Positions 7,274 to 58,112 of a stretch of 64,000 bases of DNA are shown one piece after another. A program made the position numbers and the translations under genes. Every line of letters begins with the position of its first letter. Within the stretch, counting starts at the first letter, position 1. Under the pieces are notes generated by a model that was not told the origin of the DNA, did no database searches, and saw only the letters and a list, made by a program, of their open reading frames with translations. The DNA comes from Betaproteobacteria bacterium (lineage in GTDB: Bacteria > Pseudomonadota > Gammaproteobacteria > Burkholderiales > SG8-39): assembly GCA_016177575.1 (NCBI GenBank), contig JACOVA010000030.1, forward strand, positions 6,054 to 70,053, written 5' to 3'.

Positions 7274-7386
7274 GGCTTGAGGATGCTGCTGCAGAAGGGG
7301 GCGGGGCGATCTGATCTGGATCAAGTCCCGCCATTCGGCGGTGGGGGCCAATCTACCATGCTCGGGGCTGGGCTATCATCGCCGCC

Positions 7387-9795: not shown

Positions 9796-9842
9796 GCAGT
9801 TATGATACCGTCCCGACCCGCGAGTTCCCGCCGGAGGACGCC

Positions 9843-10349
9843 TTGGCACGCAAGCTTTCGCCGCAATTGACCCATTTCGACCGCAAAGGCCGCGCGCACA
9901 TGGTGGATGTGGGCGCGAAAGGCGAGACCCTGCGCGTCGCAGTCGCCTCGGGGCGCATCGCCATGCGCCCTGCGACCTTCCGCATGGTGGTCGAGGGCAG
10001 CGCGGCGAAGGGTGACGTGCTCGGCGTCGCGCGCATCGCCGCCATCCAGGCCGCGAAGCACGCTTCCGCGCTGATACCGCTCGCGCACCCGATCGCGATC
10101 ACGCGCGCCACGGCCGAGTTCAGGCTCGACGCAGCGCGCAGCGAGATCGCGCTCGTCGCAAGCGTCGAGTGCCGCGGCCGGACCGGCGTCGAGATGGAGG
10201 CGCTCGCCGCGGCCGCGGTCGGCCTGCTCACCATCTACGACATGGTGAAAGCCGTCGACCGGGGCATGACGATCCGCGACCTGCGGCTCGAGGAAAAGCG
10301 CGGCGGCAGATCGGGACATTACCGGCGCGCGGCTGCGGCCGCCAGGTAA
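9843..10349 (+). CDS. moaC: Cyclic pyranopterin monophosphate synthase
   Basis: [23 protein letters not shown] and the downstream region match the MoaC pattern. I chose the in-frame TTG at 9843 to avoid overlap with bepA; the exact start is uncertain. Confidence 0.85.
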
Positions 10350-10412
10350 CGTTTTGTTACCAACCCGGTCCGGCCGCCGGATGCCGGACTGCTATGATCG
10401 TCCAGCCGTTAC

Positions 10413-26805: not shown

Positions 26806-28503
26806 ATGCAGAACGTCCTGCAAACCGCCGCGGGCCGCGTGCTGCTCTGGAGCTTCGCGGGCGCGGCGCTGGCGCAGGCGCTCATCTGGCGCGCGGGTGC
26901 AGGCAACCCGGACGGCTTCAGCCCGATCTTCGCGCTTATGCTGGCGGCCTACGACGGGCACGGCAACCTGCTGCTGCTCGTGCTGGCGCTCTGCGCCTAT
27001 CTCCTGCGCAGCCGGCCGGGCGCGCTCGCGGCGATCAGGCTGGCTGCCGACAGGCCGTGGCTCACGGCCGCGGCCGCCTTCCCGCTGCTGTGCGCGGGTT
27101 CGCTCTTCGTCTATCACGCCTATCCGCTGTCGATGGACGAGTATCTCGCCGTGTTCCAGGCCGAAGCCTTCGCGGCGGGAAGGCGCGCGGGCACATTCCC
27201 TCCGGAACTGCTCGACCTCCTGATTCCGCGCGTGTTCCAGAATTACTTCTTCACCGTCGCGCGCGCCACCGGCGAGGTGTCGGCGAGCTATTGGCCCGGC
27301 TTCGCGCTGCTGCTTGCGCCGTTCGCCGCGCTCGGCATCCCCTGGGCGGCGAATCCCGCGATCGGCGCGCTCACCCTGCCCGCGCTGCATCGGCTGACGC
27401 TGCAGGTCAGCGGATCGCGCGAAGCCGCGGGCTGGGCGCTGGCGATCGCGCTCGCCTCGCCCGCCTTCGTCGTGACGTCGATCTCGTACTACTCGATGCC
27501 TGCGCACCTGCTGAGTAACCTGCTGTATGCGCTGTTGCTGCTCCAGCCGACGGTCCCGCGCGCCCTGCTCGCCGGCCTGATCGGGTCGCTCGCGCTCACC
27601 CTGCACAATCCGGTGCCGCATCTGCTCTTCGCCGCCGCATTCTTCGTCTGGCTGTGTACGCGGCGCGGCGCCGCCTCGCTCCTTGCCGCCCTGGTCGCGG
27701 GCTACCTGCCGCTTGCCCTGCTGCTGGGCGTGGGCTGGCACGGGCACCTGCCCGAGCTCGCACGCGCGGCGGGCCAGGCCGCGGGCCCGGCGGCGGCCGC
27801 GGCAGTGCAGCCGGCCCTGCCGGAGGTGATCGCGACCCATTTGCGCAGCGTGCTCTCGCTTCCGGACGCGCGCGTAGTGCTGGCGCGGCTTTCCGGGCTC
27901 GCCAAGCTCTGGACCTGGGGCGCGGCCTGCCTGCTGGTGCTCGCGGCCCTCGGCTTCTGGGCAGCGCGCCGGCGCACGGGCGTGCGGCTGCTTGCCGCCG
28001 CGCTCGCAACGATGTTTCTCGGCTACTTCCTGGTGCCGTTCGATCAAGGTCACGGCTGGGGCTACCGCTATCTCCACCCGGCCTGGTTCGTCCTGCCGCT
28101 GCTCGCGGCGCTCGCGCTCGCGGGCAGCGATGCGCGCAGGGAGGATGACTTGCGCCGCATGGCCGCCTGGGCCGTCGTTCTCTCGGTGATCCTGGCGACC
28201 GGGCTGCGGCTGATCCAGGTCGATACCTTCATCTCGCGCCAGCGCGCGCAGGTGCCGCCGCTCGCCACGACCGCGGGCGCGGATCGTCCACAGGTAGTGT
28301 TCGTCAACATCCGCACCGGCTTCTACACGCGCGACATGGTCCAGAACGATCCGTTCCTGCGCGGTCCGCGCGTTACCATGGTGTACGAGGGCGCCGAGCC
28401 CACCGCCGCGCTGATGGCCGCGCGCTTTCCGGCGTATCGCAAGAGCGCGCAGGGGGAGTGGGGGGAGCTGTGGACGGCGGCGCGCCGGAATCCTACGAAC
28501 TGA
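26806..28503 (+). CDS. Polytopic membrane protein, GT-C-like putative glycosyltransferase
   Basis: 565 aa with more than 10 hydrophobic segments and a C-terminal soluble domain. An acidic motif LSMDEY follows the early helices, as in GT-C enzymes. Family not confirmed. Confidence 0.5.
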   Translation: MQNVLQTAAGRVLLWSFAGAALAQALIWRAGAGNPDGFSPIFALMLAAYDGHGNLLLLVLALCAYLLRSRPGALAAIRLAADRPWLTAAAAFPLLCAGSLFVYHAYPLSMDEYLAVFQAEAFAAGRRAGTFPPELLDLLIPRVFQNYFFTVARATGEVSASYWPGFALLLAPFAALGIPWAANPAIGALTLPALHRLTLQVSGSREAAGWALAIALASPAFVVTSISYYSMPAHLLSNLLYALLLLQPTVPRALLAGLIGSLALTLHNPVPHLLFAAAFFVWLCTRRGAASLLAALVAGYLPLALLLGVGWHGHLPELARAAGQAAGPAAAAAVQPALPEVIATHLRSVLSLPDARVVLARLSGLAKLWTWGAACLLVLAALGFWAARRRTGVRLLAAALATMFLGYFLVPFDQGHGWGYRYLHPAWFVLPLLAALALAGSDARREDDLRRMAAWAVVLSVILATGLRLIQVDTFISRQRAQVPPLATTAGADRPQVVFVNIRTGFYTRDMVQNDPFLRGPRVTMVYEGAEPTAALMAARFPAYRKSAQGEWGELWTAARRNPTN

Positions 28504-30592: not shown

Positions 30593-32182
30593 CTAGCGGC
30601 TCTCCTCGAGGTAGTCGTCATCGATGTTGACGGCCCAGATCGCCGACTTGTCCGGGCTGCGCGCGAGGATCGCCTCGACCGCCTTCTTCGCGGATAGCAT
30701 CGAGTGGTCCTGGTTGTTGTAGCGGTGCATGCCGTTGCGGCCGACCAGGTACAGGTTGGCGTGGCCGTCCAGCCAGGCGCGCAGCTCGTCGAAGCGCGCA
30801 TAGCTGCCGAAATAGGCCGGGTAGGCTTTCGGCATGCGGATCACCACGCTATCGAGGCGCTCGGCGGGGTCGGCCAGCTTCAGCTGCTGCATCTCGCGCA
30901 TCGCGAGCTCCTTCATCTCGGCGTCCGGCGTATTCCACAGCGCGTCGCCTTCGCTGCAGAAATACTCCAGGCCGATCCAGATCGTGTCCGGATCGCGCAC
31001 CAGGTAGGGGCTCCAGTTGTTGAAGATCTGCAGCCGCCCGACCTTGACGCCGGGCTCCTGGACGTAGATCCAGTTGTCGGGCACCAGGTTGAGCGGCCCG
31101 CGCGCCGAGGGGTTGCGCATCAGGCGCCGGTAAAGCAGCCCGACGATGACGAAGTCCCGGTATTGCAGGCCGGCGGCGATCTCGCGCACCGGCTGCGGCG
31201 CCGGCGGCTCCATGCCGAGCACCAGGTCGCGCACCGGCATCGAGGAGATGAAGAAATCCGCCTCGTAACGCCGATCCACGCCGTCGCGTTCCGAGGCGTG
31301 GACCGCGGCGACGCGACCCGCGCCCCAGTCGATGCGCTTGACCCGCGATTCATTGATCAGGCGCACTCCCATCTCGCCGAGCCGCCCCGCGGTCACCTCC
31401 CACATCTGCCCGGGCCCGAGCTTGGGGTAGAGAAAGCGCTCGATGAGCGAGGTCTGCGCCGCGCCGCCGAGCCCGCTGCCACGGCGGAACGGCTTGCGCA
31501 GAGCATGCAGCAGCGCCTTGCCGATCGACAGGCTCTTGACGCGCTGCGCGCCCCATTCGGCGCTGATGCGGTCGCACGACGTGCCCCAGACCTTCTCGGT
31601 GTATTCCTTGAAGAACCGCAGATACAGGCGCCGGCCGAAGCGGTTGATGAAGAAATCCTCGAGGCTGCGCTCCGGCCGGCGCGGAAAGAGCTTGGACCAT
31701 GCGTAGCTCGCGCCGAACGCCACGCAGCGCGCCAGGCCCAGCTTGAGCGCGGTCTCGAAATTGGCCTTCAAGGGGTAGTCGAAGAACTTGCCGTCGAAAT
31801 AGATACGCGACAGGCGGTTGCGCACCAGCATGACGTCGCGCTCGGACTCGCTCGCAGTCGCGCCCTGGTACAGCTCGCGCCACTTGCCCTGATAGTCGAT
31901 GCGCAGCGCGCCCTCGCCCGCGTCCCGCGCCCGCGGGGCGGCGAGCGGCAGCATGCGCAGCCACCAGTCCATCACCCAGTCCGACTTGGAGAAGAAGCGG
32001 TGGCCGCCGATGTCGATGCGGTTGCCGTTGAACTCGACCGATTGCGCGAGCCCGCCGACGCTGCGCGTCGCCTCGAGCACGACGATGTCCTTCACGCCGG
32101 CCTGCGCAAGCTCGTACGCCGCGGTCAGCCCGGCCGGACCGGCGCCGACGATGATCACCCGCGCGCGCACGATTTCGCTCAT
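30593..32182 (-). CDS. FAD/NAD(P)-dependent oxidoreductase (amine-oxidase/UDP-galactopyranose-mutase-like superfamily)
   Basis: N-terminal dinucleotide fold [21 protein letters not shown]...[11 protein letters not shown] and GGHRFFSK. It lies in an operon with GtrA and GT2. Confidence 0.8.
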
Positions 32183-32571
32183 TTCGAATAGCGCGTGAAA
32201 AGAAGCAGCTTGCGCAGCGCGTAGTTGAAGCAGAAGACGACGCCGGCGGAAGCGACTTTGGCCATCTCGTAGGAAAGCGACAGGAGCTCCACGCCGACGT
32301 ATAGCACGAGCTGGTTGAGCGCCAGCCCCGCGAGCCCGATGAGGGTAAACACGCCGAACTCGAGGCGCGCGTCGGCGAGCCGCCGCTGGCTGAAGACCCA
32401 GCCGATCGACAGCGCGTAGATGGTCGCGAGGCCGAGCGCGAATCCGATCGGCGCCGCCGCCAGGTAGTACACGCCGCCGAGCCGGATCAGCCCCACGTAG
32501 ACGCCGAAATCCACGCCGAGCGCGATCGCGGATGCGACGAAATAGCGCGCTCCCTCGCGTGCCAGGCTCAT
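32179..32571 (-). CDS. GtrA-family small membrane protein
   Basis: 130 aa from ATG 32571, four hydrophobic helices, and [16 protein letters not shown]...[10 protein letters not shown] typical of GtrA. It overlaps both neighbours by 4 nt. Confidence 0.85.
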
Positions 32572-34145
32572 TGTTCCGCTTTCAGCAGGAGCGAGGTGGC
32601 GGCGCTGCCGGGCGTCGCGCGCGCATGCACGGTGGCTCCCCGATTCGCCAGCGCACGCGCCCCCGCCTGCCACGCCGCATCGCTGAGCGTGTCCCGCGGG
32701 TGGTACCTGCTCAGGAAGACGTAGTCGGCGCCCGATTCGCGCACCGCGCGCCGATACGCCTCGGGCGCAAGCCCGGAGGCGGGCGCGGCGACTCCGCGCC
32801 GGTCTGCAAGCAGCGCAACATAGGAGGGGGCGACCCACATGACGCGGTCCGCGGGCCGGGTGAGCGCGCGGATCGCCTCCATGTCCGCAAACAGATCGAG
32901 CTGCACCTGGGCGCGCGCGCGCGCCGCGACGAGGTCGGGCGTGCGGTACCAGTCGGTAATCGCGGCGAACGGCGCCCCGGCGCGCGCGCGCTGCTGGATG
33001 AACGCGAGGGCAGGCAGCGTCAGGCTGAGCATCAGCAGCGTGAGCAGCGCATGGCCGAACCCGGGCGCGCGCCGCGCGGCCTGCAGTGCCCTGCCCGCCG
33101 CCAGGAAAGCGTACAGGATCAGCACCGGCACGATCGGGAACAGGAAGCGCCCCATCTGGTCGTAAAACGGCCAGGCGAGGAACATCGCCAGGTAGGCGGC
33201 GGCGATCCAGGCATCGGCCTTCCCCGCACGCAGCCGCAGCGCCATGCCCGCTAGCGCAAGGCAGCCGACCACTCCCGCCAGTACAGCGCGCACCGGTCGC
33301 CCTTCGACCCAGAAGATCAGCAGCGAGCCAACCCAGCCCTCGGTCACCGCGTTCATCTGCCTGAGCAGGCTCGCGCCGAGGGCCGTCAGCGGAGCCTCGC
33401 TACCCAGAAGGGCGCGCGCATGCTCGGCCACGATGCGCGCATAGCTGTCGGCGCTCTCGGCAGGTCGCAGCAGCACCCAGGCGGCATAAGCGCCCGCGGC
33501 GGCGAGCGCGGGAATTAGCGCCTGCGCGCGCGCCGCCGCGGATTGCGCGCGCTGCATCGCCGCCCAGATCGCGTACACCGCGATCAGCGGCAGCGCAGCG
33601 GTTCGCGTCAGCGCCATGGCGCAGAGCAGAAGCGCGAGCATGAGCTGCCTGCGCCAGCCGGCCGCGCTCGAATCGAGAACGTGCAGCGTCGCCAGCAGCA
33701 GCGCGCAAAACAGCGGCTCGCTGAGAATTCCCTTGGCATTGATCCAGACCGTCGGCAGCAGGACGACCGACAGGGAGGCTGCAGCCGCCGCGCCCCGGCT
33801 TTCGAGCCAGCGGACTCCGAGCCCATAAACCAGGGGCACCGATGCGGCAAGGATCAGCGCGGTAAGCACATGCGCCCGCGCCAGGTCGTGCGCGGCGCCG
33901 GCCAGCGCGAGTATCAGCGGGAACAGGGGCGGATAGGACGTCTCGCGCGCGAACGCTGACGCAACCGCCGGCGACGCCGGCTGAAACGGCGAGAACACCT
34001 GTGCCATGACGAGGTAGCTCACGCTGTCGTCGGCAAAGGTGGCAAGCGTCGTCTGCCGCACGAACGTCGCGCAGGCCAGCGCGAATGCCAGGGTCAAGGC
34101 CCCGACCGCGATCCACGGCAGCGCCGGCTGCCCGCGCGAGGTCAC
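32568..34145 (-). CDS. Polytopic membrane protein, GT-C-like putative glycosyltransferase (ArnT/PMT-like architecture)
   Basis: 525 aa with about 11 hydrophobic segments followed by a soluble C-terminal domain. An acidic first-loop motif [14 protein letters not shown]. Family not confirmed. Confidence 0.55.
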
Positions 34146-34151
34146 GACGCG

Positions 34152-37040
34152 TCAACCGCCATCGGGCGCGCTTTCGGCAACCGCTTCCGTGGCAACCTCG
34201 GTCAGCACCCCCGCCACGGTCCGCGCCATTCGTTCCCAGGTGAACAGCCGGGCGCGCTCGAGGCCCCTTGCCACCAGCCGGCTTCGCACCTCGGGGTTCT
34301 GGATTTCGTCCATTGCGCTCGCCAGGCCGATGTAGTCCATGGGCTTGACGTAGATTGCCGCATCCGCCGCGACCTCGGGGAGGGAAGCTCGCATGGTCGT
34401 GATGACCGGGCAGCCGCTCGCCATCGCTTCGGCGACGGGCATGCCGAAGCCTTCGTAGATCGAGGGGTAGGCGAGTGCGATCGCGCCGCAGTAGGCGAGC
34501 CTCAGCTCTTCGTCGTCCAGCCGCAGCATGTAGCGCTCGCCTTCCGCGCGCAGCGCCTGCAGCTCCGGCTCGAGGTCGCGCTCCCCGCCCACGCACACCA
34601 CGGCGAATTGATGCCGGTCGCGCAGGGCGGCGAAGGCGCGCAAGAAGGTTTCCGCGTTCTTGTAGGTCTTGCGCGAGCCGACGACGAGGAAATAGGGGCG
34701 CTTAATTCCGTGCCGGCGCTTGAAGCCCTCGATCTCGGTAGCAGCGGCGGGCCGGAACAGCGGGCTGACGCCGCAATGCGCAACCGTGACCCGGGCGGGA
34801 TCGAGCGCGGGATAGAAGCCGCACAGATCGCGCGCCGTGCTGGCCGAAATCGCGACAAAGCGGCTCGCGTGGCGGATGCAGGACTCCTTCTCGCGCCACA
34901 TCGGATCGTTGAAGTCCGACCCCGCGACTTCCGGAATCATGTCATAGGCCATCATCACGCTGGGTGTCTCAAGCGGGCTCGTGTAGTAGGTCGAGGCAAA
35001 GACCGCCGCACCCTCCTCATCGCAAATCCGCTGCAGCATCGCGCGGTCCTCGGCAAGCCGGTCGTAGCAGTGCCTAGGCACCACTCGCCGCTTGACGCCC
35101 GGGATCGGCGGCGCCGTCTGCTCCCGGTCCAGCAAGATTACGCGATCGGCGAAGCCGCTCGCCACCCAGTGCTGAAGCAGCGACTGCCAGACGCGCGAGA
35201 TGCCGGTGTTGAATTCCTGGAAGAAAACGCCGTCGACGATCACCCGCTGCGCCCGTGCGCCTGCGCTCGCCCTGCGCACCGGGCGCGGCGCTGCGGTGCG
35301 CGGTCCGGAGGCAGGCGGCTCGATCTGCATCGGCCGCGCCTGCTCCCCGGCACACCAGGCGCGCCACATGCGGCGATACGCGGTCTCCAAGCTGCGCGCG
35401 CAATGCTCCGCATCCATCAGCGCCGAGCGCTCGAGGCGCCCGCGCAACTCGCCGCGCAGCTTGAGAAGCCTCTCGCGATCGCTCGCCAGCGCGGCAGCGG
35501 TCTGCACATAGCGGACTTCGCTCTCGGCGACCAGCTCGCGCATGCCGACGGTTTCCAGAATGCCTGCCGCGTTCCGCGATGCGGATGTGGCTCCCCGCAG
35601 GGTCACGACCGGCACGCCCATCCACAGCGAATCGAGCGCAGCCGCGGCCCCGGAGCAAGGATGGGCGTCGAGGCTGATATCGATCCGCCCGTGCAGCGCG
35701 TGCCGCGCCGGCGCGGAAAGCTCTCCGAGCACTTCGATACAGCCCGCGTCCGTCCCCGCGGAGGCGAACTTCCCGGCAATGCGCGCGGCGAGCCGGTCGG
35801 CACCGCGTGCTGCGACGACGAGCTTCGATCCCGGCACGCTGCAGAGGACCCGGGCCCAGAGCGCAATGGCCTCCGGCGTCAGCGCCTGCAGCTCATGCAG
35901 CGCGCCGAACGTGATCGTCCGTTGCGCGACCGAGGGCGGCGACCCCACCTCAGGCGCTCCAAACTCCGGCCGGTAGCACAGCTGGCCGCCCGCCAGGCGG
36001 ACCAGGCGCTCGCTGTAAAAGCGCTCCATGCCCTCCGGGCAGGCGTGGATGTCGGTGATGCGGTAATCCATCGCATCGAGCCCGGTCGTGCACGGGTAGC
36101 CGAGCCAGCCAACCTGGATAGGCGCAGGCTTGGCCGCAAATGCCGGCATGCGCAGCCCGCCAGCGGCGTGGCCGGCGAGATCCACCAGAAGATCGATGCG
36201 GTCGGCACGAAGCCCTTCGCTGAACTGCGCGTTGCTCAAGCCCGTAGTCGCGCGCCAGGTGACGTCGCGCGCGCGCAGCCGCCAGCTCACCGGGTCTTCC
36301 GCCGCCGCGTCCGAGTAGCAGAAGATCTCGAACCCGGACCGGTCGTGCCATGCCAGCACGGGCTGCAGGCAGAAGCCGACCGAGGAGTCCCTGAAATCCG
36401 CGGCGACGTAGCCTATCCTGAGTCGGCGTTCGGGCTGCCGGTCATTCTCGTGTCCCTGAAAGCGCGGTCCCCCGGCATGGCGCAACGCCCACGCCTTGTG
36501 CTCCTCATGCAGGCTTTGCGGGGTCAGATCCGGTATTGAATTGAGCGCCTGGAGCATCTCGCTGTGCGCCCGGTGCATCGAGGGATCGAGCTGCAGCGCG
36601 GTTCGAAGGCTCTGCACGGCATCGCGCGGCGACCCCGTCTCGCGCAATGCAGAGCCGAGCGCGGCGTGCCAATCCGCCCGGCCCGGATCGAGTTTCAGCG
36701 CCGAGCGCAGGGGCTCCCCGGCGTCGGCCGGCTGCCCGCGCTCGAGCAGCAGCGCGCCGAGGTTGAACCAGGCCTGCGCCAGAGCGGGCTCGCACGCCAC
36801 TGCATCGCGGTAGCACCGCAGCGCCTCGTCGCCTCTGCCGGCATGCTGCAGGACGAGGCCGAGATTGACGCTTGCCTTCGCGTGCCGGGGATCGAGGGCG
36901 AGCACCTTGCGCCAGCAGGATTCCGATTGCTCCAGCAGCCCCGCGTCCAGGCGCGCAACGCCGAGCAGGTACCACAGTCCGGCGTCGTCCGGCCGCGCCG
37001 CCACGGCGCGCTCGGCGGCGTCCAGGTCGGCGGACGTCAT
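34152..37040 (-). CDS. Tripartite TPR / GT41 (OGT-like) / GT4 glycosyltransferase fusion, 962 aa
   Basis: The start at ATG 37040 overlaps the upstream stop (ATGA). It has N-terminal TPRs and a GT41-like core (RLRIGYVAADF..., PIQVGWLGYPCTTGLDAMDYRITD, DAHPCSGAAAALDSLWMGVPVVTL). A C-terminal GT4 domain follows (YPSIYEGFGMPVAEAMASGCPVI). Confidence 0.85.
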   Translation of the reverse strand: MTSADLDAAERAVAARPDDAGLWYLLGVARLDAGLLEQSESCWRKVLALDPRHAKASVNLGLVLQHAGRGDEALRCYRDAVACEPALAQAWFNLGALLLERGQPADAGEPLRSALKLDPGRADWHAALGSALRETGSPRDAVQSLRTALQLDPSMHRAHSEMLQALNSIPDLTPQSLHEEHKAWALRHAGGPRFQGHENDRQPERRLRIGYVAADFRDSSVGFCLQPVLAWHDRSGFEIFCYSDAAAEDPVSWRLRARDVTWRATTGLSNAQFSEGLRADRIDLLVDLAGHAAGGLRMPAFAAKPAPIQVGWLGYPCTTGLDAMDYRITDIHACPEGMERFYSERLVRLAGGQLCYRPEFGAPEVGSPPSVAQRTITFGALHELQALTPEAIALWARVLCSVPGSKLVVAARGADRLAARIAGKFASAGTDAGCIEVLGELSAPARHALHGRIDISLDAHPCSGAAAALDSLWMGVPVVTLRGATSASRNAAGILETVGMRELVAESEVRYVQTAAALASDRERLLKLRGELRGRLERSALMDAEHCARSLETAYRRMWRAWCAGEQARPMQIEPPASGPRTAAPRPVRRASAGARAQRVIVDGVFFQEFNTGISRVWQSLLQHWVASGFADRVILLDREQTAPPIPGVKRRVVPRHCYDRLAEDRAMLQRICDEEGAAVFASTYYTSPLETPSVMMAYDMIPEVAGSDFNDPMWREKESCIRHASRFVAISASTARDLCGFYPALDPARVTVAHCGVSPLFRPAAATEIEGFKRRHGIKRPYFLVVGSRKTYKNAETFLRAFAALRDRHQFAVVCVGGERDLEPELQALRAEGERYMLRLDDEELRLAYCGAIALAYPSIYEGFGMPVAEAMASGCPVITTMRASLPEVAADAAIYVKPMDYIGLASAMDEIQNPEVRSRLVARGLERARLFTWERMARTVAGVLTEVATEAVAESAPDGG

Positions 37041-40000
37041 GCGGGTGCGCGCAGCCGTTTTTCCCCCATCTCGCGGTACGCATCCTCCAGCGCGCGCGTG
37101 AAGCGCGCCGCATCCAGCAGCGGCGAGGCGCGCATGCGCTCGCGCATTCCGGCGCGCAGCGCCCGCCGCTCGTCGAGCTGCCCCGCCAGGCGTAGCACGA
37201 TCGCGGCGTACTGCTCGGGTGTCGTGGCGACAAGCTCGGCGAGGCCGATGCTGCTCAGGATACTTGCGCCGGTCCTGGATGCGCAGGTCCGTCCGGCAAG
37301 CGTAACCACGGGCACGCCCATCCAGAGCGCCTCGCACGTAGCGCTCATGCCGGCGTACGGGAAGACATCCAGCGCGATGTCGATCTCGCGGTATGCCGCC
37401 AGTCGTCCGGCCGGTGAGAAATCCGGGACGTGCAGATCGAAGCGCTGCTCGGCAATGCCGTGGGCGAGCAGTTGTGCGCCCATATCGCGCCGCGCGCTCG
37501 CCGCGCTCAGGCCGTAACTGCCCAGAACCAGCCGCGCCTGCGGCTGCGCGAGCAGGATCTGCGCCCAGAGCGCGATCATGTGCGGCGTCATCGCCGCCAG
37601 CTCGTTGAAGCTGCCGAACGTGACGTGGCCGCTGCGCGACTGCGGGACCTCGCCCGCCTCGAGGCAATCGGGCTCGGGCTGATAGCAGAGAAAGCTTGCC
37701 GGCAGGCGAAGCAGTTTCTCGGCATGAAAGCGCTCGCTCTCCCCGCGCGGGTCCGCAACCGGATCGGTCAACCGATAGTCGATGGCATCCAGCCCCGTCG
37801 TGTCCGGGTAGCCGAGCCAGGTCGCCTGGACCGGGGCCGGCCTGCGGGCAAAAAGCAGCAGCCTGCCCCCGGCGGCATGGCCGGCCAGGTCGACGAGGAT
37901 GTCGATTCCGTCTGCGCGCACCTGGTCGGCCGCCTGCTCGTTGGCAAAACGCGAGATGTCGCGCCAGTGCGCGCACATGCCCCGCAGCCGCCGCGTCACC
38001 TCGTCTTCCTGCCCTCCGGTCGCGTAGCAGAACACCTGGAAAGCGGCTCGATCATGCGCCGCCAGCACCGGCTCGATAAAGGCGGCCAGCGGCCGGCGCG
38101 CGAAGTCCGGCGAAACGTAGCCGATATTCAGCCGCCGGCCGGGGCCCGTGTCCCGCAGCCGATGCGCGGTCGCGCGCAGCAATCCGCGCGCGTGCCGGTC
38201 CCGCCAGGAAACGTGCCGGTCTAAAAGCAGCTGCGCATCTTCGCCCTCGCGGAAATGCAGCGCCAGCAGCGACCGGGATTCCACGTCGGCGAGTCCCGGG
38301 TCGAGCTCGAGTGCCTTCGCCCAGGCGGCGCGCGCCTCCTCCACCCGTCCCGCGACCAGCAGCGCGCCCCCCAGGTCCGCATGCGCGCGCTCATAACCGG
38401 GGGCGATCTCGATGGCGGCGCGGAAATCCGCGATCGCCTCATCCAGTTGCAGCTCGCGGTAACGCAGGCTGCCCAGGTTGCAGCGCCAGTCCGCATGCCG
38501 GGTTTCGATGGCAAGCGCCCGGCTGACGTAGTCGATCGCCTGCTTCGTGTCGCCGAGCTGGCCGTAGACGTTGCCGAGATTGTAGAGCGCCTGCGCCATG
38601 GCCGGGTCGCGGCCGATCGCGCCGCGATAGCAGTCCACCGCCGCGGCAAGATTCCCGGCCGCCTCGAGCGCACAGCCAAGGTTGTTATGGGTCTTCGCCT
38701 GCGAATCGTCGAGCTCGAGCGCGCGGCGAAACGATGCGATCGCGTCCTCCGTCCTGCCCACGGCCTGGAGCGCGCATCCCAGCATGTAGTGAAAGGCGGC
38801 GACCCGGGGGTCGGCGGCGATCGCCCTGTTGATCCAGTCGATCGCCGCGCCGGGCGCATCGCCGTCAAAAGCGAGATCCCACTGCAGCGTCAGCGCATCG
38901 GGATGAGCAGGCGTTCCCGCCAGGATCTTTTCGCAGCGCGCGCGCGCTTCCGCCAGCCGTCCCGCGGCGCGCAGCCGGCGCGCCTGGCCGATCAGCTCGT
39001 TGTCCGACTCCTCGCCCGTGGCGCCGGGAACCGCCTCCGACCGCTTGCGCGTTTCCCACAGCTCGAGGTAGCAGCGCTCGAGCACGCGCGCGAACCCCTG
39101 CTCGTCCAGGAGCGGCGAGCTCCGCATCCGCTCGCGCAGGCCGCGGCGCAATTCCGCCAGATGCTCGATGTTGCCAGCGAGGCGGACGCTGGTCGCGATA
39201 TAAGCGTCGACCTCGTGCGTCAGGTACTGCTCGAGCCCCATGGCGTGCAGCAGGCTGGCGCCCATTCGTGCCGCGTGGCGGTCTCCGGCGAGCGAGACCA
39301 CCGGCACGCCCATCCACAGCGCCTCGCAGGTCGTGGTGGCGCCGTTGTACGGAAAGCTGTCGAGCGCGATATCGACCGAGTTGTAGATCGCGAGATGGTC
39401 CTTCACTCCCGCTTCCCATCCGCGCAGCTCGACCCGGGCCGGATCGATTCCGGCGTGCCGGAATCTGCCGCGCACCGAATCGGCGACGCTCTCGACCGAC
39501 AGCGGCCGGCCCTTCAGGATGAGGCGCGACCCGGGCACCTGCGCCAGCGTGCGGGCCGCGGCGTCCAGGAACGGCGCGGACAGTTTCGCGAAGTTGTTGA
39601 AGCAGCCGAACGTCACCGTGCCCTTGCTCAGCGCCGGCAGGGACGCGACCGCCGGACTGTCCGGCTCGGGCCGGTAGCAGAAATAACTCCTCGGCAGGCG
39701 CACCAGCCGCTCCGCCGTGTAGCGGTCCGCCTCGCCCGGCGGATCGGCCCAGGCGTCGGTAATGCGGTAGTCGACCGCGCCCAGCCCGGTGGTGTTCGGG
39801 TAGCCGAGATAGGTCGCCTGCAGCGAGGCCGGCTTCATCGCCAGCACCGGCATGCTGTTGCCAGCCGTATGCCCGGCAAGATCCACCAGGATGTCGATGC
39901 GATCCGCCCTGATGCGCTCGGCCAGCTCGCGCTCCGAAAGATCGTCGGCGTCGACCCAGTGCTCGGCCAGGGCGCGCAGCCTCCCGGTGACCGCATCCCT

Positions 40001-40846
40001 GCGGGGATTGGTGTGGTAGCAGGTGACCTCGAATCGGCCACGGTCGTGCCGCGCCAGTATCGGCTCCATGAACCGCATCACGACGTGCTCGCGGAAATCC
40101 GGCGACAGGTAGCCGAGGCGAAGCCTGCGCGGCCACGCCGGATCCGGCGCCGGCGCTTCGTAGCGCCGCGCGAAGCGCGCCCCGAAGCGCTGGTGCTCCG
40201 CGAAAATCGCCGCGGCATCCTCGTTGCAGCTGTAGTTCAGCTCGAGCAGGAGGTTGCTGTGGGTCGGCGCGTGGTCGGGCACCAATGCCAGGGCGCGCCG
40301 GTAGGTGGCGATGGCCTCGTCGGTCCTGCCGAATTCGCGATAGATGCCGGCGAGGTTGAAATGGACTTCCGGCACGTTCGGCAGAAGCGCCTGCAGCCGC
40401 TCCAGCTCGGGGAGCGCCTCCGGCCTGCGATTGAGCTCGATCAACGCTACCGCGTAGTTGTTGCGCAGCCTCGTGCAATCGGGTTGCAGGCCGAGGCAGA
40501 CACGATAGACCTCGATGGCTTCTTCAAAGCGGCGCGCATCGAGGAGCGCGGCGCCGAGCTCGAGCTGGTACAACGCCTCTCCGGGTCGCAGATCCACCGC
40601 CTGCTGAAAAAGCGCGATCGCCTCCTGCTGCCTGCGGTCGCGCACCGCCATGCGGCCGAGGAAATAGAGCGCGTCGGTGTGCGCCGGATCGCTCTCGAGC
40701 ACGCGGCGGTACAGGCGATCGGCGCCCGCGGGATCTCCCCTGCACTCGCATTCATAACCCGCGCGCAGCCACTCTTCCGGTCCTTCGGGCCCGGCAGCGC
40801 GCGCAGGCGACGGCTCGGCGCGAAGCACCCGCTTCAACCAGTTCAT
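37037..40846 (-). CDS. Tandem (TPR-GT41)x2 protein, 1269 aa
   Basis: Two colinear copies of a TPR array plus GT41-like core. Module 1 has LGYLSPDFREH..., LQATYLGYPNTTGLGAVDYRITD and FPYNGATTTCEALWMGVPVVSL. Module 2 has IGYVSPDFARR..., VQATWLGYPDTTGLDAIDYRLTD and FPYAGMSATCEALWMGVPVVTL. Confidence 0.85.
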   Translation of the reverse strand: MNWLKRVLRAEPSPARAAGPEGPEEWLRAGYECECRGDPAGADRLYRRVLESDPAHTDALYFLGRMAVRDRRQQEAIALFQQAVDLRPGEALYQLELGAALLDARRFEEAIEVYRVCLGLQPDCTRLRNNYAVALIELNRRPEALPELERLQALLPNVPEVHFNLAGIYREFGRTDEAIATYRRALALVPDHAPTHSNLLLELNYSCNEDAAAIFAEHQRFGARFARRYEAPAPDPAWPRRLRLGYLSPDFREHVVMRFMEPILARHDRGRFEVTCYHTNPRRDAVTGRLRALAEHWVDADDLSERELAERIRADRIDILVDLAGHTAGNSMPVLAMKPASLQATYLGYPNTTGLGAVDYRITDAWADPPGEADRYTAERLVRLPRSYFCYRPEPDSPAVASLPALSKGTVTFGCFNNFAKLSAPFLDAAARTLAQVPGSRLILKGRPLSVESVADSVRGRFRHAGIDPARVELRGWEAGVKDHLAIYNSVDIALDSFPYNGATTTCEALWMGVPVVSLAGDRHAARMGASLLHAMGLEQYLTHEVDAYIATSVRLAGNIEHLAELRRGLRERMRSSPLLDEQGFARVLERCYLELWETRKRSEAVPGATGEESDNELIGQARRLRAAGRLAEARARCEKILAGTPAHPDALTLQWDLAFDGDAPGAAIDWINRAIAADPRVAAFHYMLGCALQAVGRTEDAIASFRRALELDDSQAKTHNNLGCALEAAGNLAAAVDCYRGAIGRDPAMAQALYNLGNVYGQLGDTKQAIDYVSRALAIETRHADWRCNLGSLRYRELQLDEAIADFRAAIEIAPGYERAHADLGGALLVAGRVEEARAAWAKALELDPGLADVESRSLLALHFREGEDAQLLLDRHVSWRDRHARGLLRATAHRLRDTGPGRRLNIGYVSPDFARRPLAAFIEPVLAAHDRAAFQVFCYATGGQEDEVTRRLRGMCAHWRDISRFANEQAADQVRADGIDILVDLAGHAAGGRLLLFARRPAPVQATWLGYPDTTGLDAIDYRLTDPVADPRGESERFHAEKLLRLPASFLCYQPEPDCLEAGEVPQSRSGHVTFGSFNELAAMTPHMIALWAQILLAQPQARLVLGSYGLSAASARRDMGAQLLAHGIAEQRFDLHVPDFSPAGRLAAYREIDIALDVFPYAGMSATCEALWMGVPVVTLAGRTCASRTGASILSSIGLAELVATTPEQYAAIVLRLAGQLDERRALRAGMRERMRASPLLDAARFTRALEDAYREMGEKRLRAPA

Positions 40847-40903: not shown

Positions 40904-41197
40904 ATGTCCAAAGGGCCAGGCTCCCGCGACGTGGCGGATTTTGCCACCGAACTGGTGCTGGAGTTTTCCAAGCGCTGCCCGCCCGAGCTCGCCGAGCGCT
41001 CGACGATGGCCGTCGCGCGCGCGATTGACGAAATCTGCAACCGCGCGGCGGCGCTTCAGCGCGAGCAGCACCTCGGCATCTACGGCAGGGCGAAGTTCGG
41101 CACCGAGTTCAAGCTCCGGCTCAAGGACGCCGGATACGTGCCGGAGTTCGTGGACGAGCTTACCACCAAGCTGCTGATCAGCATGTCGGGAAAATAG
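40904..41197 (+). CDS. Hypothetical 97-aa protein
   Basis: This is the only plausible part of the long antisense ORF 38255..41197. ATG at 40904 with AGAGG 8 nt upstream. Native codon bias, non-low-complexity sequence, and 18 nt upstream of the FkbM gene. No motif recognised. Confidence 0.45.
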   Translation: MSKGPGSRDVADFATELVLEFSKRCPPELAERSTMAVARAIDEICNRAAALQREQHLGIYGRAKFGTEFKLRLKDAGYVPEFVDELTTKLLISMSGK

Positions 41198-50618: not shown

Positions 50619-52994
50619 TCACTTGATGCAGACCGAGCGCACTTCCTTGATGTTGGTGACGCCCGAGAGGCACTTCTCCATGCCGTCCTGCTTCAGGGTG
50701 CGCATACCCTCCTCCAGCGCCACCGCGAGCATCTCGGCCACGCGCGCCTTCTCGGCGATCAGCTTCTTGAGCGGGTCGGTGGCGATCAGCAGCTCGTGCA
50801 GGCCGCAGCGGCCCTTCATGCCGCTGCCGCCGCATTTGTCGCAGCCGACGGGCTTGTAGAACGTCAGCTGGCCCTTTTCGTTGCCGTAGGTCTTCACCCA
50901 GTCGCGATAGACGTTTTCCATCGCCGACTTGGGGTCTTTCTTGAAGGTCGAGGTGTTCTGCAGTTCGTCGCAGTACTCCTGCAGGAACGCTTTGATTTCC
51001 GCCCCTTCCGGGTTGTACGCCTGCTTGCAGCTGCACATGCGCCGCGCCAGGCGCTGCGCCAGGATGCCGAGCAGCGCGTCGGAGAAGTTGAACGGGTCCA
51101 TGCCCATGTCGAGCAGGCGGATGATCGACTCCGGCGCCGAGTTGGTGTGCAGCGTCGCGAACACCAGGTGGCCGGTGAGCGAGGCTTCGATGCCGGTGCC
51201 GGTGGTCTCCTTGTCGCGCATCTCGCCGACCATGATGATGTCCGGGTCGGCGCGCAGGAAAGCCTTCATCACCGCCGCGAAATCCAGGCCCGCCTTCTTG
51301 TTCACCTGCACCTGGCGCAGGCCCTTCTGCGTGATTTCGACCGGGTCTTCCGCGGTCCAGATCTTGGTGTCGGGCGTGTTCAGGTACTTGAGCACGGAGT
51401 GCAGTGTCGTCGTCTTGCCCGAGCCGGTCGGGCCGCAGACGAAGAACAGGCCGTAGGGCTTGCCGACCGCTTTCTGCAGCTCGTCGAGGTTGTGGGCCGT
51501 AAACCCCATCTTCTCGAGCGGGATCGGCTCGCCCGCGGCGAGGATCCGCATCACCACGTCTTCCACCCCGCCGGCGGTAGGGATGGTGGCGACCCGCAGC
51601 TCGATGTCCAGGGGCCCGAATTTCTTGAATTTGATCTTGCCGTCCTGGGGCTTTCTCTTCTCCGAGATATCCAGGTCGCACATGATCTTGAGGCGGGCGG
51701 CGAGCGCGTTGCGGTAGCTCGCCGGCACCTCGATGTAGGGCTGCAGGTTGCCGTCGCGCCGGAAGCGGATCTCGGTCTTGGCCTTGCCGGGATAGGGCTC
51801 GATGTGGATATCCGACACGCCCTGGTTGTAGGCGTCGATGATGATCTTGTTGACCAGCTTCACCAGCTCGTTGTCCGCGGCCGCCGAGACGTCGTCGGCC
51901 ACCGAGCCTTCCATCGCCTCGCCGCCGCCCTCCTCGTCGCCGAGGGTCGCCAGCATGTCGCCGATGTCGCCGCTATCGACCGCCTCCTGGCCGTAGAACT
52001 GGTTGACCGTTTCCTTGAACTCCTTCTGCGTCGTCACCTTGTACAGCAGGCGGGACTTGGGGAACACGTTCGATGCAATGCGCGAGCTGCGGATGCGCTC
52101 CGGGTCGAGGCACAGGACCGAGAGCCCTTCCTTCGCCTCGTCGATCGGCAACCAGTGGTTTCCCTCCACGTACTCGCGCTTGAGGTTCTTCAGCAGATCC
52201 ATCGGCTTGACGCGATCGGCCTTGAACGGCTCGTAGGGCACGCCGAAGAATTTCGACAGCGCCGCGCCGATGGCGGGAATCTTGACCTGGAACTCGTCGG
52301 TGAGCACCGCCTCGATATCGATCGCCTTCTTGCGCGCCTGGCGCGAGGCGAGCTCGAACTCGCCCGCCGACAGCACCGCGTCGGAAATCAGGTAGTCGTA
52401 TTTCGTCTTGACGAGCTGCGGCTTCTGCCGCTGCTTGAATGCGATCGCCAGGGTCTGCGCGAGCTCGTTGACGCCCTCCTCGGTGAGCGGGCCGAAAGGC
52501 GAGCCGGCCTTGTTGTTGATGATCTGGATCACGCCGATCAGCTCGGCGCCCCCCTGCTCGACGATCGGCGCGACCAGCTGCTGCTTGGTGCGGTAGCCGG
52601 TGCGCTTGTCGACCTCCTGCAGGAAGCGCAGGTTCGGATTGATCGCCTTCAGCTCGGCCTCGTCGTAGACGTCCTTGATGTTGGTCAGCTTGCGCGACAT
52701 CGCGACGTAGCCCGCGATCGAATGCTCCGCGATCGGCAGCTTGAGGTCCTTGAAGGAGTTGAGGCCGGTCTTGACCTTGGAGACGATCGACTGCTTGTCC
52801 TCGCCGACCGAATAGATCGTCAGCCGATCGGCGTTGAACAGCTGGCAGATGTCCGAGCTCACCTCCAGCATGATCTCGTCGATGTTGCTGGTGGCGTGGA
52901 TCTTGTTCGTCACCAGCTGCAGCTGCTTCTGGAACGCGAGCCGGATATTGACGTCCGTCTGCGTCGCTGCTGGATGGCTGAGTACCGCGCTCAT
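50619..52994 (-). CDS. GAF-fused GspE/PilB-family secretion ATPase (791 aa)
   Basis: N-terminal GAF (LTIYSVGEDKQSIVSK...GVIQIINNK). A T2SS-E N-domain-like segment. Walker A CGPTGSGKTTTL, Walker B IMVGEMRD, His box GHLVFATLHTN, and a Cys4 cluster CSCK...CDKCGGSG. Confidence 0.9.
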   Translation of the reverse strand: MSAVLSHPAATQTDVNIRLAFQKQLQLVTNKIHATSNIDEIMLEVSSDICQLFNADRLTIYSVGEDKQSIVSKVKTGLNSFKDLKLPIAEHSIAGYVAMSRKLTNIKDVYDEAELKAINPNLRFLQEVDKRTGYRTKQQLVAPIVEQGGAELIGVIQIINNKAGSPFGPLTEEGVNELAQTLAIAFKQRQKPQLVKTKYDYLISDAVLSAGEFELASRQARKKAIDIEAVLTDEFQVKIPAIGAALSKFFGVPYEPFKADRVKPMDLLKNLKREYVEGNHWLPIDEAKEGLSVLCLDPERIRSSRIASNVFPKSRLLYKVTTQKEFKETVNQFYGQEAVDSGDIGDMLATLGDEEGGGEAMEGSVADDVSAAADNELVKLVNKIIIDAYNQGVSDIHIEPYPGKAKTEIRFRRDGNLQPYIEVPASYRNALAARLKIMCDLDISEKRKPQDGKIKFKKFGPLDIELRVATIPTAGGVEDVVMRILAAGEPIPLEKMGFTAHNLDELQKAVGKPYGLFFVCGPTGSGKTTTLHSVLKYLNTPDTKIWTAEDPVEITQKGLRQVQVNKKAGLDFAAVMKAFLRADPDIIMVGEMRDKETTGTGIEASLTGHLVFATLHTNSAPESIIRLLDMGMDPFNFSDALLGILAQRLARRMCSCKQAYNPEGAEIKAFLQEYCDELQNTSTFKKDPKSAMENVYRDWVKTYGNEKGQLTFYKPVGCDKCGGSGMKGRCGLHELLIATDPLKKLIAEKARVAEMLAVALEEGMRTLKQDGMEKCLSGVTNIKEVRSVCIK

Positions 52995-53044
52995 CGGATC
53001 CCCCCGTGCATTGCGTAGCCTATCTTAGCGCCTGATCGAAAACC

Positions 53045-53073
53045 ATTCTACACCCACCCTCATGATTTTTAAC
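53045..53073 (-). promoter_or_regulatory. Putative sigma-70 promoter for the ATPase gene (weak call)
   Basis: The minus strand has GTTAAA, a 17-nt spacer, then TAGAAT, about 45 nt upstream of ATG 52994. It lies in the only sizeable (113 nt), AT-richer gap of the operon. Confidence 0.25.
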
Positions 53074-53107
53074 CTTCTTTTCTGGAATTACGTCACTGAA
53101 AGAGCCA

Positions 53108-54193: not shown

Positions 54194-54196
54194 GGC

Positions 54197-54964: not shown

Positions 54965-54972
54965 CGCCGGGC

Positions 54973-57198: not shown

Positions 57199-57242
57199 TC
57201 AATCCTCCGGCGGTCGGGCCGGGCCGGGGGACCTGCCGGCCA

Positions 57243-58097: not shown

Positions 58098-58112
58098 CGC
58101 CGATCCCTGACC

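Follow-up and report, generated by a model that had tools for sequence, protein, structure and literature searches.

Two members of the GT41 family, OGT and SPINDLY (SPY), rank among the best-known intracellular glycosyltransferases of proteins, while the bacterial members are numerous and, to our knowledge, almost entirely uncharacterised. The stretch of 64,000 nucleotides analysed here (the window) encodes two giant GT41 proteins in addition to one of ordinary architecture, and two of the four GT41 modules depart from the family at residues needed for catalysis. This raises the question of what such proteins act on and what a GT41 module may contribute when it no longer transfers sugar. The reading that we favour, with a probability of about 0.5, is an island for pilin-associated glycosylation in the cytoplasm, in which live enzymes are combined with pseudo-GT41 scaffolds. 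The three GT41 genes are:

Gene A, 37037..40846, minus strand: 1269 aa, TPR-GT41-TPR-GT41 (TPR1 at residues ~25-200; GT41 module 1, A1, ~205-605; TPR2 ~640-860; GT41 module 2, A2, ~865-1265)
Gene B, 34152..37040, minus strand: 962 aa, TPR-GT41-GT4 (TPR at residues 1-165; GT41 ~190-570; disordered linker 579-595; GT4 ~600-950)
Gene C, 47019..48818, minus strand: at least 599 aa, TPR and XcOGT/hOGT-type GT41

A first-pass annotation had described ORF 37037-40846 as two TPR-plus-GT41 units in one chain and ORF 34152-37040 as a TPR-GT41 unit with an appended GT4 domain; Pfam matches and coordinates bear out both descriptions. The profile PF13844 (Glyco_transf_41) matched A at 3.5e-102 (342.8 bits, in four stretches over the two modules), B at 4.4e-50 (170.9 bits), and C at 2.9e-95 (320 bits), all far above the cutoff of 25 bits. 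TPR families matched the three proteins at E values of 1e-19 to 1e-47, placing a TPR superhelix N-terminal to each catalytic domain. The GT4 part of B matched Glycos_transf_1 (PF00534, 1.4e-20) and Glyco_transf_4 (PF13439, 9e-08). Its EX7E motif, EGFGMPVAE, is intact, and E863, G864, F865, P868, and E871 are invariant in 47 homologues. We also considered whether this domain is a copy of the neighbouring stand-alone GT4s and rejected this (25% and 23% identity, E values of 0.82 and 2e-4). No transmembrane segments were predicted in A, B, or C by a hydropathy scan.

The reported ATGA overlap of A and B, at 37037-37040, was confirmed by direct reading (...gca TGA / ATG acg...). In the ORF listing the B frame is open upstream to a GTG at 37976; since B homologues are about 953 aa long, translation probably starts at the ATG at 37040. 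The best explanation, at roughly even odds when taken as a whole, is that A and B are transcribed together, are coupled in translation, and act in the cytoplasm as glycosyltransferases of the SPINDLY/TtOGT branch of GT41. A protein 100% identical to A is on record from a Betaproteobacteria MAG (P0001). The source organism is known only as a MAG.

Catalytic residues of the four GT41 modules

Among relatives of solved structure, SPY gave the best matches to A1, A2, and B (phmmer E values of 1e-75 to 1e-92), and gene C matched XcOGT at 4e-89. By sequence, A1, A2, and B fall within the SPY/TtOGT branch and gene C is XcOGT-like. The first-pass annotation had judged all modules against OGT catalytic residues; this frame suits gene C and is wrong for the other three of the four modules, because among solved structures A1, A2, and B are closest to SPINDLY, which is an O-fucosyltransferase, and to TtOGT. 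The intervening domain of hOGT is absent from all GT41 proteins of the window.

Motifs were aligned pairwise (HMMER) to SPY, TtOGT, hOGT, and XcOGT and in a MAFFT L-INS-i alignment, which recovered the published equivalence of SPY D491/H495/A664/K665/Y744 with hOGT D554/H558/Y841/K842/C917 (PMC9715652). All four domains are real GT41 domains, and the four motif pairs listed earlier are present and align as had been stated by eye. The label His498 given with them was wrong: the His of SSDFGNH is hOGT H558 (SPY H495), and H498 corresponds to SPY L439 (PMC9715652). The residues at the deciding sites are:

Active-site His (hOGT H558, SPY H495): H254 in A1, H244 in C; R918 in A2, S219 in B
Phosphate-binding Lys (hOGT K842, SPY K665): K421 in A1, K413 in C; A1085 in A2, A386 in B
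Guanine-binding Lys (SPY K689): K445 in A1; G1109 in A2, A410 in B; Leu in C, as in hOGT
SPY H728: H484 in A1, His in B, His in C, as in hOGT; R1148 in A2
SPY Y744: Y500 in A1; C462 in B
Phosphate/ribose Thr pair (hOGT T921-T922, SPY T748-T749): T-T in A1 (T504-T505) and C; S-A in A2, A-A in B
SPY T747-749: M1167-S1168-A1169 in A2, A465-A466-A467 in B

In SPY, H495A/F and K665 mutants are dead and T748A, S496A, and Y744A have reduced activity (PMC9715652), while K665A, K689A, E752A, and Y744A were reported to abolish activity (PMC10027727). The SPY-type signature of A1 is intact (D250, H254, N417, K421, K445, H484, Y500, T504, T505, and E508), with equivalents of SPY D491, H495, N661, N662, K665, K689, H728, Y744, T748, T749, and E752. 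Since every residue individually essential in SPY is kept, including K445, which is invariant in 44 homologues, A1 is predicted to be an active protein O-glycosyltransferase, probably dependent on a GDP-sugar. At the fucose-contact sites A1 has V255 (SPY S496), Y500 (Y744), A503 (T747), and V256/L347 (the V497/I592 pocket), so that A1 retains the Tyr and the pocket but has Val for S496 and Ala for T747. These contacts would suit a small or 6-deoxy GDP-sugar as donor. No GDP-sugar synthesis genes were found in the island within the window, and among the orthologous loci examined an NDP-sugar epimerase/dehydratase-family gene occurs only in L005 and L009.

Gene C likewise has an intact signature (H244, N409, Q410, Y412, K413, H472, Y488, and H491-T492-T493). 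Like XcOGT (PDB 2JLB, 2VSN) and hOGT, from whose branch A1, A2, and B are excluded, it keeps the equivalents of H558, Q839, Y841, K842, H901, and H920-T921-T922, and it shares with XcOGT a Tyr at the position of hOGT C917. It is predicted to be an active XcOGT/OGT-type enzyme. The GT4 domain of B is intact.

The claim that two of the four modules lack both His and Lys held up under proper alignment: neither A2 nor the GT41 module of B has an equivalent of either residue. Further losses beyond those first listed affect the K689 site (A2 and B), the H728 site (A2), the Y744 site (B), and the T747-749 sites (A2 and B); B additionally carries H382 and D470 within its degenerate signature. As aligned, each of the two modules is missing at least three donor-binding or active-site residues that are individually essential in SPY, and we infer that both are catalytically inactive. 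A TtOGT structure with the motif 'FNRLSM' (PDB 5DJS) was considered as a natural Lys-less GT41 and rejected, as it is an engineered K341M mutant.

Structure prediction with AF2 gave confident SPY-like models that include both degenerate modules and show the helical repeats of the TPRs. For residues 200-1269 of A, the model had a pLDDT of 91.0 and a pTM of 0.81, and its best Foldseek superposition was on SPY (8dti_A, target TM 0.90, rmsd 3.5 Å). For B (pLDDT 87.7, pTM 0.82), the top Foldseek matches were SPY (1e-45 to 1e-47, target TM 0.61-0.74), and TtOGT had a target TM of 0.86.

Tandem and fusion families and the fate of their degenerate modules

Both architectures are widespread rather than rare. 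The tandem form occurs in at least 108 clusters, mostly from Burkholderiales MAGs, and the fusion form in 47 sequences. A scan with very generic patterns (E[AS][LM]WMGVP) found multi-module GT41 proteins in many phyla among the matches listed, L010 being the only ortholog among them; a scan of genome contigs with a single protein as query gave no matches. In agreement with the earlier remark that the architecture was not known to be characterised, literature searches found no paper describing a TPR-GT41 tandem or a GT4 fusion, and nothing relevant on pilin with SPINDLY or on GT41 with pseudoenzyme; a paper on PEP-CTERM turned out to have no bearing on the subject.

The 108 homologues of the tandem family show essentially no variation in the module 1 signature HHNKTTTE. 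Of their second modules, 68 are intact and the remaining 40 carry many different replacements, with R, G, C, S, N, E, D, F, L, or P at the His site and A, V, T, M, I, L, S, N, or R at the Lys site. According to a neighbour-joining tree with Fitch parsimony, module 2 was ancestrally intact and has lost the His and/or the Lys on 10 or more occasions. Since both modules are intact in 68 of the 108 homologues, the degeneracy seen in A2 is lineage-specific. The earlier proposal that active and degenerate GT41 modules are paired thus applies to this A, where module 1 is intact and module 2 is not, and fails as an intrinsic trait of the tandem. A link between module 2 loss and the presence of a B-type fusion was rejected, since both intact (P0010, P0022, P0028) and degenerate module 2 forms co-occur with fusions on the same contigs.

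The fusion family is different in pattern. None of its 47 sequences has the GT41 His, and the Lys appears in only 3 of 48 alignment rows, while the EX7E motif of the GT4 domain is intact and that domain is more conserved than the GT41 module. Its GT41 module has a recurrent pattern of its own, with Pro at the His site and His, Arg, or Gln at the N661 site.

That the degenerate modules are functionless remnants heading for deletion would agree with the faster evolution of module 2, which diverges 1.36 times as fast as module 1 in degenerate pairs and 1.12 times in intact pairs. We nevertheless consider this very improbable. The reading frames are intact over ~400 aa each, column conservation is still 0.64-0.73 across dozens of lineages, none of the 47 fusion homologues, which range down to 45% identity, has dispensed with the degenerate GT41, and the models reach a pLDDT of ~90. 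The Asn-ladder positions of the TPRs are invariant or nearly so (N722, N756, and N790 in A; N59 and N93 in B). A check for a pattern of N-lobe kept and C-lobe lost in the degenerate modules gave only small differences in column conservation (0.70 versus 0.64 in B, 0.73 versus 0.67 in A2), and no such pattern is claimed. Family evidence and AF2 models are consistent with a loss of catalysis in A2 and B with the fold retained.

Pseudoenzymes sometimes keep activity via relocated residues. A2 and the GT41 module of B might accordingly still be catalytic with a different donor or chemistry, other residues (e.g., R917/R918 and R1148 in A2) having taken over phosphate and base binding. Good conservation and confident folding of both modules, the Arg at two of the lost positions in A2, and the fusion family's own pattern at the His and N661 sites would fit such a role, which we nonetheless regard as improbable. 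The replacements in the tandem family are heterogeneous and have arisen at least 10 times, indicating no new conserved catalytic set in module 2; P0003, the closest relative, carries Gly in place of the Arg of A2; and B has lost the whole phosphate/ribose T-T-T loop together with the K665, K689, and Y744 equivalents. With A2 and the B module read as inactive, the one operon would offer a natural series of a live, a recently dead, and an anciently dead GT41 module. More than 100 homologues would then record repeated loss of catalysis, which makes the role of a GT41 fold without sugar transfer testable.

The pilin gene and its conserved neighbourhood

The genes around A, B, and C are:

30593..32182, minus strand: FAD-dependent amine-oxidase-like protein, conserved in L001, L003, L004, L006, L007, and L009
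32179..32574, minus strand: GtrA-family small membrane protein (PF04138, 4e-18)
32568..34145, minus strand: polytopic membrane protein, GT-C-like candidate, 525 aa, at least 9 predicted TM segments and a soluble C-terminal part; directly downstream of B
40904..41197, plus strand (opposite to pilin and A): soluble, conserved orphan protein, 97 aa
41216..42097, plus strand: FkbM-family methyltransferase, candidate sugar O-methyltransferase (PF05050, 5.5e-10)
42171..42602, minus strand: type IVa major pilin, 143 aa (Pfam Pilin 1.5e-19, N_methyl 2.7e-10)
42853..44292, minus strand: TPR protein with a weak GT9-like (heptosyltransferase-like) C-terminal domain (PF01075, E 1e-3, below the gathering score)
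44330..45946, plus strand: TPR protein, C-terminal half without assigned domain
45943..47016, minus strand: stand-alone GT4, directly downstream of C, ~357 aa by comparison with L003 (the listed ORF runs to 47325)
48914-50599, minus strand: GAF-HD-GYP protein, island flank
50619-52994, minus strand: GAF-MshEN-T2SSE pilus-type ATPase, island flank

The pilin gene lies 1.3 kb upstream of A. Its product has the leader MKQLQKG, a C-terminal Cys-Cys loop, and 28% Ser+Thr in the globular part. Neither this gene nor its conserved synteny figured in the first-pass annotation; they provide the most likely biological role. All nine orthologous loci have a pilin gene upstream of their tandem GT41 gene, with one or two orthologous pilin genes immediately upstream in L001 and L003-L010, and the core that is invariant across these nine loci consists of pilin, small ORF, and tandem GT41. 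The 97-aa orphan is found in every orthologous locus (76 clusters, all annotated 'hypothetical') and had no Pfam match. The FkbM gene occurs in 8 of the 9 loci checked (L001, L003, and L005-L009, plus a fusion in L006), and a homologue of ~520 aa of the 525-aa membrane protein, both without Pfam match, follows in 7 of 9. L003, L005, L007, L008, and L009 have a single TPR-GT41 gene upstream of the pilin gene; in L003, L007, and L008 it comes right after the gene for the GAF-HD-GYP protein. The pair of GAF-HD-GYP and GAF-MshEN-T2SSE genes also flanks L003, L004, L006, L007, and L008. The best explanation, an even call as a whole, is a variable glycosylation island at ~14-48.8 kb of the window that is built around the type IVa pilin gene.

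The same neighbourhood allows a different reading, in which the GT41s do not modify pilin and act on another cytoplasmic protein or on a lipid-linked polysaccharide (O-antigen/EPS-like) exported by Wzm/Wzt or the GtrA/GT-C set; pilin would be nearby through clustering of surface-structure genes or through later periplasmic ligation of the glycan. The genes of the island in the window also include those for Wzm, a Wzt that has a Wzt_C domain, WbsX, GT2s, GtrA, and two polytopic membrane proteins. The GtrA, polytopic membrane protein, and GT2 set is encoded in the same operon as A and B and could glycosylate pilin in the periplasm without the GT41s, the globular domain of pilin being periplasmic. 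We judge this reading rather unlikely, as the core common to the nine loci is made up of pilin, small ORF, and tandem GT41. In addition, the minimal island L008 consists essentially only of GT41 genes, pilins, and methyltransferases; the 8 kb covered to either side contain neither Wzm/Wzt nor GtrA or GT-C genes. Moreover, the GT41s characterised so far act on proteins, and their TPRs bind protein substrates (PMC9715652); a GT41-pilin precedent exists in cyanobacteria (PMC9306852). On the pilin-associated reading, the conserved synteny offers a concrete candidate substrate.

Proposed role and comparison with known systems

In the proposed mechanism, A1 and gene C would start O-glycans on Ser/Thr residues of pilin before its export; because the globular domain of pilin is periplasmic, Sec/SRP insertion sets the latest point at which an enzyme in the cytoplasm could act. 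The GT4 domain of B and other glycosyltransferases would extend these glycans, and the methyltransferases would decorate them. A2 and the GT41 module of B would serve as pseudo-glycosyltransferases, still folded and conserved, whose TPR superhelix and empty GT-B cleft may bind the acceptor or the part-glycosylated acceptor and present it to the live domains. More tentatively, and clearly short of even odds, this could be an undescribed betaproteobacterial pilin route in which SPY-like GT41s act on cytoplasmic pre-pilin, dead GT41 scaffolds (in cis in A, fused to GT4 in B) hold pilin or read glycopilin, and the 97-aa orphan is an accessory.

The established pilin glycosylation routes (PilO/TfpO, PglL, TfpW) are periplasmic, and the proposed mechanism, if true, would add a cytoplasmic one beside them. 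It would also extend the cyanobacterial link between Ogt and pilin to Proteobacteria and to the SPY branch. On the more tentative reading, GT41 would gain its first pseudo-glycosyltransferase system, and protein O-glycosylation of the SPY type (GDP-sugar) would be used by bacteria on a subunit of a secreted filament.

Among known systems, the Arabidopsis GT41 protein O-fucosyltransferase SPINDLY (PDB 7Y4I, 8DTF-8DTI) resembles A and B in combining TPRs with a GT-B fold that lacks the OGT intervening domain. Unlike SPINDLY, A and B are bacterial, comprise two units per chain (A) or a GT4 fusion (B), and adjoin a pilin gene; A2 and B lack essential residues, and A1 has Val and Ala at the S496 and T747 positions.

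For the scaffold role of the dead modules, GtfA/GtfB and FlmG may serve as models by analogy. GtfB is said, in work by Chen et al. in PNAS in 2016, to have a GT-B fold, to be non-catalytic, and to bind substrate. The GtfA/GtfB system of Gram-positive serine-rich-repeat adhesins likewise consists of a cytoplasmic O-glycosyltransferase and a GT-like partner that act cooperatively on a later-exported protein (PMC7661464), but it is GT4 rather than GT41, comprises two separate proteins without TPRs, and involves accessory Sec export. In Caulobacter FlmG, the TPR domain binds the filament subunit and the GT-B domain adds sugar in the cytoplasm before export (PMC7591256); the differences are that the substrate is flagellin rather than pilin, the donor is pseudaminic acid, and there is one live module.

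The closest parallel in genetic context is Ogt/OgtA of the cyanobacteria Synechococcus elongatus and Nostoc punctiforme, a cytoplasmic TPR GT41 with a genetic link to type IV pilin genes. Glycosylation of PilA depends on Ogt, whose catalytic Lys is required, and ogt adjoins pilin genes in 38% of 201 genomes (PMC9306852). For direct transfer to the pilin, Ogt is a candidate there, as the GT41 proteins are here. The cyanobacterial enzymes belong to another phylum and differ in being single-module, OGT-type, and UDP-GlcNAc-dependent, with no tandem, pseudo-module, or GT4 fusion described.

GT41 domain architecture and catalytic residues

In the window, whose GC content is about 65–71%, the two large ORFs of the first-pass annotation were present as described, with the stop codon of A and the start codon of B overlapping in an ATGA:

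37037–40846, minus strand: ORF A, 1269 aa, TPR-GT41-TPR-GT41 (GT41 modules A1 and A2)
34152–37040, minus strand: ORF B, 962 aa, TPR-GT41-GT4 fusion
47019–48818, minus strand: ORF C, single TPR-GT41

Pfam searches matched Glyco_transf_41 in A (3.5e-102, in four stretches corresponding to two modules), B (4.4e-50) and C (2.9e-95), along with many TPR repeats in each protein; B additionally matched Glycos_transf_1 (1.4e-20) and Glyco_transf_4. From these matches we concluded that the domain architecture is real, far beyond chance. No membrane segments were predicted in A, B or C.

A phmmer search against all PDB chains identified Arabidopsis SPINDLY (SPY; E 1e-75 to 1e-92) and Thermobaculum OGT (TtOGT) as the nearest solved relatives of A1, A2 and the B module. 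The match of these modules to human OGT (hOGT) was weaker and split in two pieces, since all three lack the OGT intervening domain. C was nearest to Xanthomonas campestris OGT (XcOGT; 4e-89) and also matched hOGT. By sequence similarity, A1, A2 and the B module are SPY-type, not OGT-type. The deposited sequence of TtOGT (PDB 5DJS) carries the engineered substitution K341M; PDB sequence searches thus show a Met at the catalytic Lys, which is artificial but can be mistaken for a natural variant.

When SPY, hOGT and the four modules were aligned with MAFFT L-INS-i, the result was concordant with the pairwise alignments and recovered the published equivalence of D491/H495/A664/K665/Y744 in SPY with D554/H558/Y841/K842/C917 in hOGT (PMC9715652). 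This agreement, together with the residues listed below, bears out the first-pass motif comparison, in which two modules kept the His and Lys and two did not. The label H498 given there to the motif His was wrong: the residue is hOGT H558, and H498 corresponds to SPY L439.

Residues of the four GT41 modules at aligned SPY positions
SPY H495: A1 H254; A2 R918; B S219; C H244
SPY N661: A1 N; A2 N; B H382; C N
SPY K665: A1 K421; A2 A1085; B A386; C K413
SPY K689 (binds guanine): A1 K445; A2 G1109; B A410; C L, as in hOGT
SPY H728: A1 H; A2 R1148; B H; C H
SPY Y744: A1 Y; A2 Y; B C462; C Y
SPY T747-T748-T749: A1 A-T-T; A2 M-S-A; B A-A-A; C H-T-T
SPY E752: A1 E; A2 E; B D; C D

SPY mutants H495A/F and those in K665 are dead (PMC9715652), and SPY activity is abolished by K665A, K689A, E752A and Y744A (PMC10027727).

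Tandem and fusion families

A survey of tandem and fusion forms, as the first-pass annotation had proposed, yielded at least 108 full-length tandem homologue clusters (50–85% identity, mostly Burkholderiales MAGs and metagenomes) and 47 full-length homologues of the TPR-GT41-GT4 fusion, down to about 45% identity. A record 100% identical to the A protein itself comes from a Betaproteobacteria MAG. About a third of the tandem homologues (~37 orthologues) have a SAM methyltransferase added at the C-terminus. Homologues of 1860–2160 aa also exist (P0048, P0054, P0065, P0070, P0071, P0096, P0108, P0115 and P0120); they gave full-length matches to A at 36–42% identity, suggesting at least three TPR-GT41 units per chain.

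The signature of module 1 (H, H, N, K, T, T, T, E) was essentially invariant in the 108-sequence alignment. Module 2 kept both His and Lys in 68 sequences and had lost one or both in 40, with many different residues as replacements. By parsimony on an NJ tree from which module 2 was left out, the ancestor of this module was intact and at least 10 losses followed. Divergence of module 2 relative to module 1 was 1.36-fold among degenerate pairs versus 1.12-fold among intact pairs. Among the fusion homologues, the GT41 His position was never His and mostly Pro, and the Lys was kept in three sequences only. Their GT4 domain is better conserved than the GT41 domain, and its EX7E motif is invariant. 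The unit of B is most like the second unit of A (catalytic domains 44% identical; TPR E 8e-28).

The Asn ladder of the TPR domain has an established substrate-binding role in OGT. In the degenerate units, the ladder positions are invariant or nearly so, and column conservation amounts to 0.64–0.73; these units remain constrained. For SPY, substrate binding by the ladder has been modelled (PMC10027727). AlphaFold modelling, likewise proposed earlier, gave confident AF2 models of B (pLDDT 87.7, pTM 0.82) and of A residues 200–1269 (pLDDT 91.0, pTM 0.81), both of which superpose on SPY with a target TM of up to 0.90. The degenerate modules had been proposed to be scaffolds or to use an altered donor. 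Varied and repeated replacement of catalytic residues with a retained fold reads as the signature of a pseudoenzyme, not of a new donor specificity.

Gene neighbourhood and orthologous loci

A and B share a minus-strand gene string with a 525-aa polytopic membrane protein, GtrA, an FAD amine-oxidase-like protein and two GT2s. Reading upstream from A, the order is a 97-aa ORF, an FkbM methyltransferase, a pilin, two TPR proteins, a GT4, C, a GAF-HD-GYP protein and a GAF-MshEN-T2SSE ATPase. Individual features are:

26806–28503, plus strand: polytopic membrane protein, 565 aa, at least 6 TM segments
32568–34145, minus strand: polytopic membrane protein, 525 aa, at least 9 TM segments, followed by GtrA and kept in most orthologous loci
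40904–41197, plus strand: 97-aa soluble orphan protein (…ARAIDEICNRA…LGIYGRAKFGTEFK…FVDELTTKLLISMSGK), conserved in every orthologous locus
42171–42602, upstream of A: type IVa major pilin gene (Pilin 1.5e-19, N_methyl 2.7e-10)
42853–44292, minus strand: TPR protein between pilin and C, C-terminal half weakly GT9 (heptosyltransferase)-like (E 1e-3)
44330–45946, plus strand: TPR protein between pilin and C, C-terminal half unassigned

The globular part of the pilin consists of 28% Ser+Thr. In each of the nine orthologous loci compared (L001, L003–L010), the tandem gene is directly preceded by one or two orthologous pilin genes. The 97-aa ORF is located between pilin(s) and tandem gene in every locus but L004, which has it upstream of its pilins; its homologues form 76 clusters, every one 'hypothetical', and no Pfam family was found for it. 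Several contigs encoding this protein match, in length, contigs on which tandem GT41 genes occur. The weak GT9 match of the TPR protein at 42853–44292 is reminiscent of protein heptosyltransferases.

L008 represents a minimal island of a single GT41, two pilins, a tandem GT41-methyltransferase and FkbM. Its flanking MacB/HlyD/M48/ChrB genes are the same as those at 7.4–14 kb of the window, and the other flank is the GAF-HD-GYP/MshE-like ATPase region (window 48.9–53 kb). Based on these common flanks, we concluded that 14–48.8 kb of the window is a variable island, which holds, beyond the L008 content, GH43, Wzm/Wzt (with Wzt_C), four methyltransferases, AsnB, WbsX, GT2s and GT4s. A signalling block (48914–58925, minus strand) adjoins the island and encodes GAF-HD-GYP, the GAF-MshEN pilus-type ATPase, a cNMP-binding/rhodanese protein, a class II phosphodiesterase-like metallo-beta-lactamase, a CHASE2 adenylate/guanylate cyclase, an FHA protein and a PP2C phosphatase; parts of it recur beside the islands in L003, L004, L006, L007 and L008.

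Among the matches listed, many phyla have distant multi-module GT41 proteins, and no pilin was found within 6 kb of their genes save in the Geobacter-type loci L016 and L020. Pilin-GT41 adjacency may recur outside the Burkholderiales. In L016, from a Geobacter MAG, 5228–5847 holds a short Geobacter-type pilA-N gene plus a 106-aa ORF, directly upstream of a multi-module GT41 (6001–10743); L020 has a similar short pilin at ~472, about 2.5 kb upstream of the GT41 match.

A possible pilin-associated glycosylation system

As the best-supported reading, we propose a pilin-associated glycosylation system in which live cytoplasmic enzymes would be partnered with TPR/pseudo-GT41 units whose role would be to bind the acceptor and present it. 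Predicted to be live are A1 (SPY-type, probably with a GDP-sugar), C (XcOGT-type), the GT4 of B, and others. We put the probability of this combined explanation at about one half; within it, the claim that A2 and the GT41 module of B lack catalysis yet keep a function is firmer than that of the pilin as acceptor. The pilin could instead be glycosylated in the periplasm, where its globular domain ends up, by the GtrA/GT-C-like set of the operon; the polytopic protein at 32568–34145, without Pfam match as is that at 26806–28503, could be a candidate GT-C-type periplasmic glycosyltransferase. Polysaccharide export genes, also located in the window, speak against the pilin-glycosylation reading.

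The whole finding derives from sequence analysis of an uncultured organism. This locus type is common in environmental Burkholderiales and provides a natural series ranging from live to dead modules. The ingredients (GT41 enzymes, pseudoenzymes, pilin glycosylation) are known individually; literature searches found neither a tandem nor a fused pseudo-GT41 described, nor any pilin-linked GT41 of the SPY branch. GtfB is a non-catalytic GT-B protein, and HMW1C-type adhesin glycosylation occurs in the cytoplasm. Precedents for the proposed system are FlmG, whose TPR domain binds flagellin (PMC7591256), GtfA and GtfB, which act cooperatively on serine-rich adhesins (PMC7661464), and the HMW1C-type GT41 enzymes, which add sugars to an adhesin destined for later secretion (PMC3012730).
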